Sequence record: PQ569687.1
DNA from: Klebsiella phage vB_Kpn_K54_rec1
Length of the DNA stretch: 64,000 nucleotides
Strand: one strand, 5' to 3'
The stretch's first letter is position 1. Each line of letters opens with the position of its first letter. A model generated the notes under the pieces. The model made no database searches, was not told the DNA's origin, and saw nothing but the letters and a program-made list of their open reading frames with translations. A program made the position numbers and the translations under genes. Shown in pieces: positions 35,479 through 39,518 of the stretch.

Positions 35479-35727
35479 ATGAAAAAGATTATCCTAGCCG
35501 CCCTGCTCGCGCTTTCTTGCTCTGCACAAGCAACAGAGTTTTATCCTGAAGCAAACCCGAATGATATTAACGAGTCCGTTGATAGTGAACTGGCAAAGTC
35601 CCTACTGAAACGCGACACCCTTGAATTGAAAATTAAAATCGCAGAGCTTGAAGTGGAACTTGCCAAAATGAAGAAGACTCAAGTTCTATACAGCATTGCC
35701 CTTGAATCAATGGAGAAAAACAAATGA
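35479..35727 (+). CDS. secreted/periplasmic coiled-coil protein (82 aa)
   Basis: Signal peptide MKKIILAALLALSCSAQA plus a coiled-coil C-terminus; GAGGAG RBS. Confidence 0.45.
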   Translation: MKKIILAALLALSCSAQATEFYPEANPNDINESVDSELAKSLLKRDTLELKIKIAELEVELAKMKKTQVLYSIALESMEKNK

Positions 35728-36812
35728 CGATTACTCGCGGCCTTATCTTCGGAAAGTTTGCACCGCTGACCAACGGACATATTGAATTCATTCGCCAGGC
35801 GGCTTCTCAGGTTAGTGCTCTGTATCTGTTCCTGTCCTATGACCAGAAATTCGTTGACGCACAACCAGAGTGGATTCGTCCTAAGCTGGGACTTGCTGAT
35901 CGTTATCGTGACCTGCTGGATGTCATTGCCGACGAGGGACTTGACAACGTGAAGGTAGACTACGTTGATGAGTCGAATATCCCAGGATACCCTGAAGGCA
36001 GTGCTGCCTATGCAAAACTGATCCGTGAAAAGCAACCGTTCGTTAAGTACGATTTTGCTTTCTCTTCTGAGCCGGAGTATGAGTCTTACTTCAGTGAGTT
36101 CTTCCCTGAAGCGAAGCATGTAGTTATCGACGCAGAACGTAAAGCTGTTCCTATCTCTGCCACAATGATCCGTAACGACCCGTACAACAACTTCTACAAC
36201 CTGGCGTGGCCTGCACGTAAACGGTTCATGAAAAAGGTTGCCATTATTGGTGTTGAGAGCACAGGGAAAACAACCCTGACAAAACATCTGGCGCATACCT
36301 TCGGTGCTGGTTGGATTCCTGAGATCGGGAGGCTTATCTGTGAGCGTGAATACCACTCCAGTGAGTTAGCAATGTCTCGTGGAGACTATCTTCGTATCGC
36401 AATGGAGCATCGCCTGAAGGAAATGGAGTTAGCTGGTTGGGGTGGTTGTGGGGTTATGTTCTCTGACACCACAAACCTGATCACTCACTTCTCTGGCATT
36501 TGTGCAGAAAAGATCGACTACTCCGATCTTCTGTTCCGCACACTGAGCCGTGAAGAGAGCTACAACTTCTACGACCTATTCCTGTTCCTCACACCAGAGG
36601 TTCCGTGGGTTGCTGATCCTCTTCGCTTGCAGGATACGCCAGAAAAGCGTAAAGAAACACATTCTTTGCTTGACACAATGATCAGGACATCTTACGATAC
36701 AAGCAAGGTGGTAGTTATCTCAGGAAGTGATTACAAAGAACGTACTCAGAAAGCCGAAGAAGCTGTCCGTAAATTGCTGAATATCAAAGGAGAACAGAAT
36801 GGGGTTTCCTAA
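35724..36812 (+). CDS. NadR-like bifunctional NMN adenylyltransferase / ribosylnicotinamide kinase
   Basis: N-terminal cytidylyltransferase-fold motif GKFAPLTNGH (HxGH). C-terminal P-loop kinase motif GVESTGKTTL, as in the NadR ribosylnicotinamide-kinase domain. Confidence 0.75.
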   Translation: MTITRGLIFGKFAPLTNGHIEFIRQAASQVSALYLFLSYDQKFVDAQPEWIRPKLGLADRYRDLLDVIADEGLDNVKVDYVDESNIPGYPEGSAAYAKLIREKQPFVKYDFAFSSEPEYESYFSEFFPEAKHVVIDAERKAVPISATMIRNDPYNNFYNLAWPARKRFMKKVAIIGVESTGKTTLTKHLAHTFGAGWIPEIGRLICEREYHSSELAMSRGDYLRIAMEHRLKEMELAGWGGCGVMFSDTTNLITHFSGICAEKIDYSDLLFRTLSREESYNFYDLFLFLTPEVPWVADPLRLQDTPEKRKETHSLLDTMIRTSYDTSKVVVISGSDYKERTQKAEEAVRKLLNIKGEQNGVS

Positions 36813-37080
36813 ACTTGAGGTTGGCGATTTAGTATTGGTTCGCCAGTGGAACGGTGAGGAATCTGTAGAGATTTGTCAATACCGTGGGGCAACAGGAAGC
36901 CTGATGTTGATGGTATACCATCCTGATGCAATTTTGAAATCTCAAAGTGAGCGTTTCATTCGGGACACCGACAGTATGCCGTACAGTGTTAGCATCGTTC
37001 GTAAGAGCGATTCAGAGGCATGGGCTAGACTCATGGTAAAAATATCCGCACAAATCCGCACAAAAAGGAGAACAAGATGA
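36799..37080 (+). CDS. hypothetical protein (93 aa)
   Basis: ORF overlapping the NadR-like gene end. Confidence 0.45.
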   Translation: MGFPKLEVGDLVLVRQWNGEESVEICQYRGATGSLMLMVYHPDAILKSQSERFIRDTDSMPYSVSIVRKSDSEAWARLMVKISAQIRTKRRTR

Positions 37081-37442
37081 ACGTAACTAATTCAAGCATG
37101 GAGCAGGCTTTTGGTGTTCTGAAGATTATTTTGGAAAAGGCACCTGAATTAGCGGAAGGTCTTCAAGCTTATGCCAACTGTCGTGAGCAAGGGTTCTCCA
37201 TAACCAAATGGAATCACAAATGTGATAATGACCTTTCAAAGCAAGTCTCTTTTTCTGAGTGCCGGAACAGTGATCAGATCAATGTGTACTGGGGTCAGCC
37301 TGGTAACTTCAACTACCAGACGAATGTGCCTGATGACGATACATATTTTGCTCGCCGTAAATTCTTCGGCTATGAGGAGTACGAGGAGGCGGCTGATTGG
37401 ATTGTGGCGTACCTAAAAGGTGATAACGATGGATCAAACTAA
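37077..37442 (+). CDS. hypothetical protein (121 aa)
   Basis: ATGA overlap. Confidence 0.45.
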   Translation: MNVTNSSMEQAFGVLKIILEKAPELAEGLQAYANCREQGFSITKWNHKCDNDLSKQVSFSECRNSDQINVYWGQPGNFNYQTNVPDDDTYFARRKFFGYEEYEEAADWIVAYLKGDNDGSN

Positions 37443-37839
37443 TCTGGAAATTCTCCACTTCTTAGAGAAGTCTTTGGAGGAAAAGCAGGGATGGACGTAC
37501 CACAAAGAGGTGGCTGATAAATTTGGCGAGCCTGCCACTACAGAGGCTCTCTCTTCTCTTATCGGGCATGGTAAAGTGATAGCTTGTGGCTGCGGGTGTT
37601 CCGGTATGATGATCACCCCTGCGGGTCTTGAGGATATTCGCCCACCAAAACGTATCATGGTGTGGAAAACAGAATCCGGGAAGGTTGTCAGGCTGACCCA
37701 TATGTCAGATGACCACTTGCGGAACGCCATCATTTGGTTGCTGACAGACTCCAGTCTTACTGATGAGTACGAGGGTTATGGCATCACACAATGGTTGGTG
37801 GCTATGTCTCGCGAGCTGCACAGCCGTGTATCTGTATAA
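37420..37839 (+). CDS. hypothetical protein (139 aa)
   Basis: ORF. Confidence 0.45.
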   Translation: MITMDQTNLEILHFLEKSLEEKQGWTYHKEVADKFGEPATTEALSSLIGHGKVIACGCGCSGMMITPAGLEDIRPPKRIMVWKTESGKVVRLTHMSDDHLRNAIIWLLTDSSLTDEYEGYGITQWLVAMSRELHSRVSV

Positions 37840-38177
37840 TGGCTAAAGTTCTCAACTTTTACCACATCGGTAAAGTGATCCCTGAAAATGCTGAGTACAT
37901 GGGGCGAGCAATGCCCCACTTGGGCCTGAAGCAATCTAAATTCGCTAACCCATATAAGTTGTCGAAGGATGAGCCTCGCGGGGCAACGATTGAGCGCTAT
38001 CGCGTATGGTTATGGCAACAGATCCGTGCTGGGAAAATTACTATTCAAGATCTTCTTGACTTGGATGGTAAAGACCTTGTATGCTTCTGTAAACAGCCGA
38101 ACAAAGAGGTAGCATGTCACTGTGATGTGATACTTGCGGCAATCGAATGGGCAAAACAGAGGAGTCAAAATGTCTAA
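37839..38177 (+). CDS. hypothetical protein (112 aa)
   Basis: TAATG coupling; internal Met start. Confidence 0.45.
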   Translation: MAKVLNFYHIGKVIPENAEYMGRAMPHLGLKQSKFANPYKLSKDEPRGATIERYRVWLWQQIRAGKITIQDLLDLDGKDLVCFCKQPNKEVACHCDVILAAIEWAKQRSQNV

Positions 38178-38319
38178 AGAATTTATGGGCTGGTTTGATA
38201 AAAACGCACCCGCACATCTTTTTCCAGATGCAGAGGAGCGTGAAAACCTACAAGTGATGTGTTGGTTAGCATGGCGAGATGGGATCAGGTCTGTCTTACC
38301 AGTTGTAATGGAGGGTTAA
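38170..38319 (+). CDS. hypothetical small protein (49 aa)
   Basis: GAGGAG RBS before ATG 38170. Confidence 0.35.
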   Translation: MSKEFMGWFDKNAPAHLFPDAEERENLQVMCWLAWRDGIRSVLPVVMEG

Positions 38320-38321
38320 AA

Positions 38322-38558
38322 ATGGCAATTCATGCAAAAAGTAATGGTCTGCTGATCGGCGGTAAGATCATCGAGGAGACACTGACAGGCTGGGTTTTCC
38401 AGGCAATGGATAACAAAGGTACTAATTTTGTGTTCAAGTCAGATGAGAAGAACCAAGTTTTTGACGGACCGAATGCTGTTGACGAAGCAATGGCTTGGCA
38501 AACTAAAGTTCGGTCAGAAATGAAAAATAAAAAGAAAAAGGGGCGCAAAAATGGCTAA
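38322..38558 (+). CDS. hypothetical protein (78 aa)
   Basis: GGAGGG RBS before ATG 38322. Confidence 0.4.
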   Translation: MAIHAKSNGLLIGGKIIEETLTGWVFQAMDNKGTNFVFKSDEKNQVFDGPNAVDEAMAWQTKVRSEMKNKKKKGRKNG

Positions 38559-38808
38559 AGATACATGGGAAGTATTTCAGGATGACGATGAAATAAAGGT
38601 CATTGTCTCAGGTTCTCTTGAGGTAGGTTCCGGGTGGAGAACTTACAGAGACGTGTGTTCAGAGATTAATAGTATTGAAGATGCAAATCTTATCGCAGCA
38701 GCACCAGAACTGCTTGACGCAGTTCTGGATCTGAAGTATAGGTTATACGGTAACGGCGCAGCGAATCCTAAAATCGAAGCGCTCCTTAAACGATTAACAG
38801 GAGAATAA
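38551..38808 (+). CDS. hypothetical protein (85 aa)
   Basis: ORF. Confidence 0.4.
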   Translation: MAKDTWEVFQDDDEIKVIVSGSLEVGSGWRTYRDVCSEINSIEDANLIAAAPELLDAVLDLKYRLYGNGAANPKIEALLKRLTGE

Positions 38809-38810
38809 CC

Positions 38811-39518
38811 ATGAATACAAATCTGTACATTAAGACAGCATGGACCGACTTTTATGGCTGGTCAAAACTTGAATACCTTTGGCTCCTCATCTGCTCGGCA
38901 TCGATCGCCATTGTCTCCTTGACTATGGGCGGTGGATTAGTAGAATTCATCTCTTCGGTCACCGGGATCATCGGGGCTATCCTGGTGGCAAAAGGTAAGC
39001 TTTCCAGTTATTACTGGGGCTTTGTGGCAACGGTGCTGTATGCATATATCTCTTTCACGTACAAGCTGTACGGCGAGACGATTATGTACACCCTGTTGTT
39101 CACCCCCATGCAGGTCATTGGCGGGGTAATCTGGGCGCGTAAGTTAACCGTCTCTGCGGATGGTGAACGTGCGGATGTCATCAAGAAGTATCTGACCACA
39201 AAACAGCGCTGGATTGTTGGTATCGGGACATTGGTGACGATCGGATTATACGCCGAGTTCGTTAGCCTGATGAAAGGGAGTATGCCGGGTCTCGATTCTG
39301 CTACAGCAATCCTGTCGGTTCTGGCAACCTACCTGATGATGGTTCGTTATGCAGAACAATGGTATGTGTGGATCATCGTTAACGTTGTTGCTGTGGCTCT
39401 GTGGATTCAGACAGCAATGCATCATGAAACTCAGGGTTGGGCAGTGCTTGCAATGTGGGTAACTTTCCTGTTAAACTCTGTGTATGGTGCTTACAAGTGG
39501 CGGAAGGCTAAATTTTAG
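38811..39518 (+). CDS. pnuC: PnuC-like nicotinamide riboside transporter
   Basis: About 235 aa polytopic membrane protein. Segment QWYVWIIVNVVAVALWIQ matches the conserved PnuC block (E. coli NWLLWVIINVISVVIF), and the topology is similar. Confidence 0.7.
   Translation: MNTNLYIKTAWTDFYGWSKLEYLWLLICSASIAIVSLTMGGGLVEFISSVTGIIGAILVAKGKLSSYYWGFVATVLYAYISFTYKLYGETIMYTLLFTPMQVIGGVIWARKLTVSADGERADVIKKYLTTKQRWIVGIGTLVTIGLYAEFVSLMKGSMPGLDSATAILSVLATYLMMVRYAEQWYVWIIVNVVAVALWIQTAMHHETQGWAVLAMWVTFLLNSVYGAYKWRKAKF

Follow-up and report, generated by a model that had tools for sequence, protein, structure and literature searches.

Depletion of nicotinamide adenine dinucleotide (NAD+) is a common bacterial strategy against phages, and the ability of a phage to rebuild NAD+ decides which defences it overcomes. 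The closest described counterpart of the locus analysed here is the NAD+ reconstitution pathway NARP3, whose mechanism has been worked out for genes 86 and 87 of Bas30, i.e. Escherichia phage TrudiRoth, an Epseptimavirus of the T5-like Demerecviridae (Yan et al., Sci Adv, 12 Aug 2026; PMC13464706). According to that study, Bas30_87 is a trimeric transporter of nicotinamide riboside (NR), and Bas30_86, for which the crystal structures 9X6H and 9X6F are available, converts NR to nicotinamide mononucleotide (NMN) and further to NAD+. The two proteins on their own suffice in E. coli; they restore NAD+ depleted by Sir2-HerA and rescue T7, lambda, and Klebsiella phages in an NR-dependent manner, with a half-maximal effective concentration (EC50) of 3.6-5.6 uM (PMC13464706). 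The same authors reported 124 NARP3 operons, about 1 % of them from Klebsiella. Previously, Osterman et al. 2024 (bioRxiv) had noted that phage NadR is usually encoded in an operon with PnuC, displaying BASEL phages with such an operon (their Fig. S3B) and suggesting a possible further NAD+-making pathway, while Iyer et al. 2022 had counted NadR among the phage NAD+-synthesis domains used against NADase effectors. Here, we describe a NadR-type and a PnuC-family gene within a 64,000-nucleotide stretch of Klebsiella phage vB_Kpn_K54_rec1 (PQ569687.1; hereafter the window), whose products very probably constitute an NR salvage module of the NARP3 type.

The same chemistry and folds are found in bacterial PnuC/NadR salvage (H. 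influenzae, Salmonella, E. coli; 1LW7, 8X7F, 4QTN). However, the canonical trifunctional NadR of bacteria possesses an N-terminal helix-turn-helix (HTH) repressor domain that the window enzyme lacks, and pnuC and nadR are unlinked in E. coli, whereas the window genes lie on one strand in one block. NARP1 (Adps and Namat) serves the same goal of rebuilding NAD+ in infection and occurs in the same phage lineage (KNP2, KB57, Mydo, PQ569689), but its enzymes and substrates are unrelated to those of the window pair, as it joins ADP-ribose (ADPR) and nicotinamide via ADPR-pyrophosphate (ADPR-PP). NARP2, represented by NadV and NatV of KVP40 (NAMPT and NMNAT-Nudix), also ends with an NMN adenylyltransferase (NMNAT) of the same HIGH-motif superfamily; yet it starts from nicotinamide and phosphoribosyl pyrophosphate (PRPP) instead of NR, comes without a transporter, and its NatV bears a Nudix domain in place of the P-loop kinase (AAA_28) found in the window enzyme.

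The window belongs to a Mydovirus (Vequintavirinae) phage type, that is, to a myovirus, in contrast to the T5-like Bas30. Over a 5-kb region, the window shares 99.7 % identity with Klebsiella phage vB_Kpn_K54_rec3 and 94-98 % with KNP2, KB57, Mydo, KpS8, and others, and the NadR-type enzyme is 100 % identical to its counterpart in KNP2, likewise a Mydovirus of the Vequintavirinae. GenBank/RefSeq records of this phage group already label the enzyme gene 'nicotinamide-nucleotide adenylyltransferase' and the transporter gene 'PnuC-like nicotinamide mononucleotide transport' or 'ribosyl nicotinamide transporter'. The initial annotation of the window, made from its sequence, had considered the pair to differ from the phage NAD+ pathways described so far, a view that is outdated in light of these labels, Osterman et al. 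2024, and the NARP3 study of 2026. Thus, the window pair is a divergent and split member of the NARP3 type, and the mechanism proposed for it is not new, having been hypothesized in 2024 and demonstrated for the Bas30 pair in 2026.

HTH-less NadR-type enzyme and PnuC-family transporter

Both genes were recovered in the open reading frame (ORF) list at the positions and on the strand initially annotated (Table 1). According to Pfam, the enzyme comprises a CTP_transf_like domain (residues 8-151) followed by AAA_28 (residues 171-340). It matches PHROG 3462, 'nicotinamide-nucleotide adenylyltransferase', with an E-value of 1e-139 and aligns at full length with NadR-type enzymes in the PDB, the best match being Bas30_86 itself (9x6f/9x6h; E 3.7e-59, residues 3-352), besides NadR from E. 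coli (8x7f; E 4.6e-30) and H. influenzae (1lw7; E 1.6e-26). All canonical NadR motifs, namely (H/T)xGH, ISxTxxR, and the Walker A of the ribosylnicotinamide kinase (RNK), are present. The N-terminal NMNAT domain carries T16-N-G-H19 and I144-S-A-T-M-I-R150, and the C-terminal RNK domain carries the Walker A G176-VEST-G-K182-T183 as well as an intact Walker-B-like aspartate, D248. Hence, the proposed two-domain NadR-like organization stands with both its adenylyltransferase and its P-loop kinase part, but the first motif is not HxGH as had been read; it is the T variant of (H/T)xGH, as in Bas30_86. The HTH repressor domain is absent from the N-terminus, the NadR profile NF005988 being matched only at positions 65-408 of 411, and since the first 4 nt of the ORF still belong to the upstream gene, with start and stop overlapping in ATGA, there is no room for an N-terminal extension. 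A Shine-Dalgarno sequence, GGAG, precedes the ATG by 9 nt. From domains and motifs, this gene encodes an HTH-less NadR-type enzyme that would act as both NMNAT and RNK.

The suspected PnuC-like importer was equally borne out by profile searches, matching Pfam NMN_transporter PF04973 (E 5e-39), PHROG 1880 (E 3e-78), and NCBIfam TIGR01528, 'nicotinamide riboside transporter PnuC', with 111.9 bits, well above the cut-off of 42.45. It also aligns with PnuC of N. mucosa, 4QTN, over residues 14-232 (E 2.4e-40), and its ATG is preceded by AGGAG at a distance of 7 nt. By family membership it is a PnuC-family NR transporter, and NR would be its predicted cargo. For both proteins the E-values exclude chance matches. 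Furthermore, the transporter scored 51 versus 335 bits against the enterobacterial PnuC subfamily model, and this low score, together with those of the enzyme against the NCBIfam NadR models (see below), indicates that neither gene is a recent copy from the host. Both genes are under strong purifying selection: compared with the Seunavirus orthologues, dN/dS (the ratio of nonsynonymous to synonymous substitution rates) amounted to 0.08 for the enzyme and 0.04 for the transporter, values that are approximate as dS is saturated, but clearly far below 1.

Compared directly with NARP3, the window enzyme shares 36 % identity with Bas30_86 over 354 aligned residues (E 3e-67), and the transporter 37 % with Bas30_87 (E 1e-44). 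Mutation of K10, F11, S37, E80, P84, G89, F110, S112, D115, V139, I141, E230, or D275 abolishes NAD+ regeneration by Bas30_86 (PMC13464706); 12 of these 13 residues are identical in the window enzyme, the exception being D115, which is replaced by E118. When all named Bas30_86 residues are considered, 16 of 20 are identical, with further changes of W90 to Ser, D164 to Arg, and R167 to Lys. Likewise, two of the three NR-binding residues reported as essential in Bas30_87 (N45, Q94, N180; PMC13464706) are retained, as Q101 and N191. Window and NARP3 thus have in common both protein families, the HTH-less NMNAT plus RNK architecture, the TxGH motif variant, and a gene order with the enzyme upstream of the transporter on the same strand. 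This homology to proteins of proven function, with key residues kept, lends support to the originally suggested conversion of NR to NMN and NAD+ as a plausible response to NAD+-depleting immunity.

Gene order and neighbouring genes

In six unrelated phage lineages, namely Bas30, Aeromonas phage PAc, ICP1, an Erwinia jumbo phage (Eneladusvirus), Klebsiella phage Miami, and Enterococcus phage EFDG1, NadR is followed directly by PnuC without any insert. Judged on ten loci (about ten were sampled), a split between the two genes was confined to the Vequintavirinae, where its content differed by genus. While the Mydovirus window has seven ORFs within 1,998 nt (2.0 kb), Seunavirus SalP219 contains four small ORFs and an HNH endonuclease, Henunavirus pEa_SNUABM_55 a single ORF, and the metagenomic relative L019 three ORFs, one of which encodes an HNH endonuclease. 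A syntenic relative, L020, shares the flanking genes (at 60 % and 30 % identity) and has a DUF4326 gene, but neither NadR nor PnuC, indicating that NadR and PnuC are accessory cargo gained or lost together. The seven-ORF insert is therefore lineage-specific and not a conserved core. Adjacency in six lineages, the variable insert, and the persistence of DUF4326 in the pair-less L020 led us to reject the in-between genes as general parts of the module, to which the initial annotation had thought they could belong. Its description of them as small genes without assigned function also needs to be qualified, as Phage_tudor and DUF4326 are recognized by Pfam and each of the genes can be placed in a PHROG family.

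Table 1. Position and basis of assignment of the NadR/PnuC pair and of other features in the window
Feature	Coordinates	Strand	Basis
NadR-type enzyme, HTH-less, predicted bifunctional, 362 aa	35724..36812	+	Pfam, NCBIfam, PHROG, PDB matches
PnuC-family nicotinamide-riboside transporter (predicted), multi-pass membrane, 235 aa	38811..39518	+	PF04973, TIGR01528, PHROG, 4QTN
Lineage-specific insert, seven small overlapping ORFs	36799..38808	+	ORF list, Pfam, PHROG
Phage_tudor protein	36799-37080	+	Pfam
phrog_6319 protein	37077-37442	+	PHROG
phrog_22435/16964-type protein, 139 aa	37420-37839	+	PHROG
DUF4326 protein, 112 aa	37839-38177	+	Pfam
49-aa ORF	38170-38319	+	ORF list
phrog_8602 protein	38322-38558	+	PHROG
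phrog_1273 protein	38551-38808	+	PHROG
phrog_7941 membrane protein, two predicted transmembrane segments, 123 aa	39527..39898	+	PHROG
82-aa protein with signal-peptide-like N-terminus	35479-35727	+	
Tiny hydrophobic ORFs, upstream cluster	34870-35445	+	
Tiny hydrophobic ORFs, downstream cluster	40881-41099	+	
phrog_1735 protein, 676 aa	31716-33746	+	
DNA polymerase region, apparently split	26529-31384	+	
DNA polymerase, apparent pieces	26529-28568, about 29283-29618, 30333-30731	+	
ORFs splitting the polymerase, putative HNH endonucleases	28699-29148, 29741-30232, 30713-31384	+	99.7 %-identical record

Two neighbours are candidates for lineage-specific companions of the pair, as judged from their occurrence. 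Among the in-between genes, only that of the phrog_22435/16964 protein recurs in each of the four Vequintavirinae loci examined that bear NadR/PnuC; L020 lacks it. The N-terminal part of the protein is helical, its C-x-CGC motif (CGCGC here) is invariant, and its C-terminal region, 'VWKT...THMSDDHLRNAIIWLL', is highly conserved; the phrog_22435 protein has 9 database homologues only, gave no Pfam or PDB match, and its AlphaFold2 (AF2) model is of low confidence (pLDDT 59.5). The gene of the phrog_7941 membrane protein lies 8 nt downstream of PnuC, is also found downstream of PnuC in pEa_SNUABM_55 and L019, and was not found in L020. For both, this tracking of the pair rests on a single pair-less locus, and neither occurs beside NadR-PnuC in Bas30, ICP1, or Eneladusvirus.

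The DUF4326 protein likely starts at the ATG listed in Table 1, although the ORF list gives a longer version from 37791. Its alignment shows invariant C82, C84, C93, and H94, and its AF2 model is confident (pLDDT 93). The predicted fold appears weakly NADAR-like, a weak lead towards a possible link to NAD or ADPR, which Foldseek against the PDB (nothing, best E 1.2), a PDB sequence search (nothing), and hhalign against the phage's own NADAR protein (0.2 % probability) do not confirm. As a co-inherited component of the pair DUF4326 was rejected, as it is present in L020 without the pair, lies upstream of NadR in L019, and has no NAD-related neighbours in unrelated phages.

A different small gene accompanies the pair elsewhere. 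The phrog_6894 protein, a cysteine-containing signal-peptide protein of ~100 aa, is encoded directly downstream of PnuC in Bas30/TrudiRoth (bas30_0088; L002 5839-6135) and directly upstream of NadR in the Erwinia jumbo phage pEa_SNUABM_44 (Eneladusvirus; L010 3683-3997), the two copies being 62 % identical. It could be a third, periplasmic NARP3 companion in these two lineages; a relative of it was not detected in the window (best E 0.24).

The NadR/PnuC block is embedded in tightly packed, co-directional early or middle genes. Between 35479 and 41099, neighbouring genes either overlap or are separated by no more than 9 nt, and no intrinsic terminator was predicted on the plus strand between 34836 and 43386. 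Same strand, tight packing, and lack of a predicted terminator between the genes make co-transcription plausible. Scans of the region with Rfam and for tRNAs and repeats yielded nothing relevant, and neither tRNA genes nor Rfam families (gathering threshold) were found across the whole window, whereas the NARP3 genes of Bas30 have tRNA-rich surroundings.

Immediately upstream of NadR, and overlapping its start, lies a gene whose 82-aa product begins with a sequence resembling a signal peptide (MKKIILAALLALSCSAQA) and is otherwise charged and probably helical; some related records call this product a putative lipoprotein. Several tiny, strongly hydrophobic ORFs of 55-72 aa, with one or two predicted transmembrane segments, form two clusters, one immediately before the NadR block and the other after the PnuC block; counting PnuC and phrog_7941 as well, this early region is unusually rich in membrane proteins. 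Further upstream lies the gene of a conserved phrog_1735 protein, the homologues of which are listed under Pfam DUF8224; in every Vequintavirinae-like locus examined, this gene bounds the variable early block on the left. Its KNP2 RefSeq label, 'DNA-directed RNA polymerase', is unsupported, as the Pfam scan gave no match. Finally, the DNA polymerase of the window is apparently encoded in three pieces, with intervening ORFs that are labelled HNH endonucleases in the 99.7 %-identical record, while the KNP2 polymerase gene is one uninterrupted 2.7 kb. These interruptions may be introns, inteins, or free-standing homing endonucleases; Rfam at gathering threshold revealed no group I intron.

Co-carriage of NARP1 and distribution

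KNP2 and the 99.7 %-identical record PQ569689 encode an adjacent pair of NAPRTase-family and PRPP-synthetase-like proteins, a Sir2-family protein, and a NADAR protein. In KNP2, gp080 matches Pfam NAPRTase, and gp081 matches Pribosyltran, Pribosyltran_N, and Pribosyl_synth. The supplementary tables of Osterman et al. 2024 list exactly these proteins of KNP2, KB57, and Mydo as Adps and Adps-associated Namat, i.e. NARP1; pairs of this kind were shown by the same authors to form NAD+ directly from ADPR and nicotinamide without the need for host NadR or PncC. These Namat-like/Adps-like, Sir2, and NADAR genes are located outside the window, at 58950-61506, 67171-67947, and 73178-73729 in KNP2 (NC_048647) and at 88573-91114 and 96651-97427 in PQ569689; in KNP2, the NARP1 pair is more than 50 kb away from NadR/PnuC and on the opposite strand. 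Tblastn with the KNP2 Adps and Namat found no NARP1 genes within the window, the positive control on PQ569689 having worked. The genome lineage of the window phage thus carries NARP1 alongside the NARP3-type pair.

ICP1 and Seunavirus 4MG are on the NARP1 list as well, and both have PnuC homologues; in ICP1, the PnuC gene directly adjoins a NadR-type gene. Together with the KNP2 group, co-carriage of NARP1 and a NadR/PnuC-type route therefore recurs in at least two unrelated lineages. It is not discussed in the NARP3 paper (PMC13464706), nor did we find another paper discussing it. TrudiRoth and Eps7 are absent among the NARP1 table entries listed, which is weak evidence on whether they have NARP1.

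Of 50,697 phage records searched with tblastn, 729 contained a homologue of NadR and 794 one of PnuC (about 1.4-1.6 %), far in excess of the 124 operons reported for NARP3. The record counts of the two are near-identical per genus: 176 and 178 (NadR and PnuC, respectively) for Salmonella, 47 and 46 for Klebsiella, and equal numbers for Escherichia (38), Bacillus (24), and Lactobacillus (18).

Proposed function and alternative explanations

By analogy with the Bas30 experiments and with the biochemistry of bacterial NadR and PnuC, the PnuC protein would insert into the host inner membrane and import NR. The C-terminal kinase domain of the NadR-type enzyme would convert NR to NMN, which the N-terminal domain would then adenylylate to NAD+, at the expense of two ATP per NAD+. 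In this way the pair may keep NAD+ available in infection, especially against defences that hydrolyse it, of the Sir2, TIR, or SEFIR type. We hold this enzymatic route for well supported by the sequence comparisons and very likely, whereas a dedicated anti-defence role, which is argued from the Bas30 phenotype, appears likely with somewhat less confidence.

Several observations speak against this interpretation. N45 of Bas30_87 corresponds to Gly52 in the window transporter, even though it was reported as essential for NR binding; according to the alignment, however, N. mucosa PnuC, which was crystallized with NR, likewise has Gly at the equivalent position, so that N45 is possibly not a general requirement. 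In the enzyme, W90 of Bas30_86, said to stabilize NMN, is the residue replaced by Ser, and the scores fall below the NCBIfam NadR cut-offs (TIGR01526, 176.1 versus 341.15 bits; NF005988, 164.1 versus 201 bits). Identity to the experimentally tested NARP3 proteins reaches only 36-37 %. In addition, the genes of the NARP3 operon are adjacent (1 nt apart in Bas30), whereas 2 kb and seven ORFs intervene in the window. The promoter scan was uninformative, with 20 matches in the region against 17.7 expected by chance from shuffled sequence, which leaves co-transcription as a deduction from gene packing. Finally, NARP1 in the same genome lineage may make the pair redundant for defence evasion.

Alternatively, the pair could be a general auxiliary metabolic module, supplying NAD+ for replication and for NAD+-using proteins of the phage, such as the Sir2-family protein encoded elsewhere in related genomes, with or without NAD+-depleting immunity in the host. 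The biochemistry would be the same under both readings, related genomes encode a Sir2-family and a NADAR protein, and both Iyer et al. and a jumbo-phage study place NadR and PnuC in broad phage repertoires of NAD+ synthesis. Nevertheless, the phenotype measured for the Bas30 pair is NR-dependent rescue from Sir2-HerA, and the presence of NARP1, a proven counter-defence, in the same lineage points to selection by NAD+ depletion; we therefore regard a general metabolic role as possible but doubtful, although metabolic and counter-defence functions are not mutually exclusive. If the annotations of KNP2 gp080 and gp081 were taken at face value, as NAMPT-like and PRPP-synthetase-like, their products would yield NMN and need an NMNAT, a step that the window enzyme might mainly provide in a NARP2-like route from nicotinamide through NMN to NAD+, with PnuC as a side entry. 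This is very unlikely, as Osterman et al. assign the KNP2, KB57, and Mydo proteins to NARP1, with NAD+ formed directly, and as the two genes are remote from NadR/PnuC and oppositely oriented. Moreover, the kinase domain and PnuC are both subject to strong purifying selection, which would be unexpected if the NMNAT domain alone mattered.

The PnuC superfamily also includes transporters of thiamine or deoxynucleosides. Transporter and kinase might hence handle another nucleoside or vitamin instead of serving an NAD+ route, for which the 'NrdR-regulated deoxyribonucleotide transporter, PnuC-like' of EFDG1 provides a phage example and the change at N45 a possible hint. The score well above the cut-off of the NR-specific equivalog TIGR01528, the end-to-end alignment with NR-bound N. 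mucosa PnuC, the retention of Q101 and N191, and a linked enzyme that keeps the NMN/NAD+-binding residues of Bas30_86 render such a substrate most improbable. It is also conceivable that the module exceeds two genes here, with some of the small genes between or beside the pair (phrog_22435/16964, DUF4326, phrog_7941) working together with NadR and PnuC. We consider this quite unlikely, since none of these genes stands beside NadR-PnuC in Bas30, ICP1, or Eneladusvirus, DUF4326 persists where the pair is missing, and the similarity of DUF4326 to NADAR is weak and was reproduced by neither Foldseek nor hhalign. Besides, shared ancestry suffices to explain a co-variation derived from one pair-less locus in one lineage, and Bas30_86 and Bas30_87 need no further partner in E. 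coli.

In a more far-reaching and, in our estimation, unlikely scenario, NR salvage in Vequintavirinae would be one arm of a larger, multi-route NAD+/ADPR toolkit. With NARP1 present in the same genomes, and with both routes also found in the unrelated ICP1, NR import and the recycling of ADPR with nicotinamide would then be complementary and not duplicate, while phrog_22435/16964, phrog_7941, and perhaps DUF4326 would modulate or extend the pathway.

The window reveals no new principle. Rather, it indicates that NARP3-type modules extend far outside the T5-like phages from which they were defined, tolerate splitting by insertions, and can coexist with NARP1 in Klebsiella phages of the therapeutic type. 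This bears on the prediction of host range against Klebsiella armed with Sir2 or TIR defences. It is also relevant to the suggestion that therapeutic phages be engineered to contain NARP3, given that a version of it is naturally present in some Klebsiella phages.

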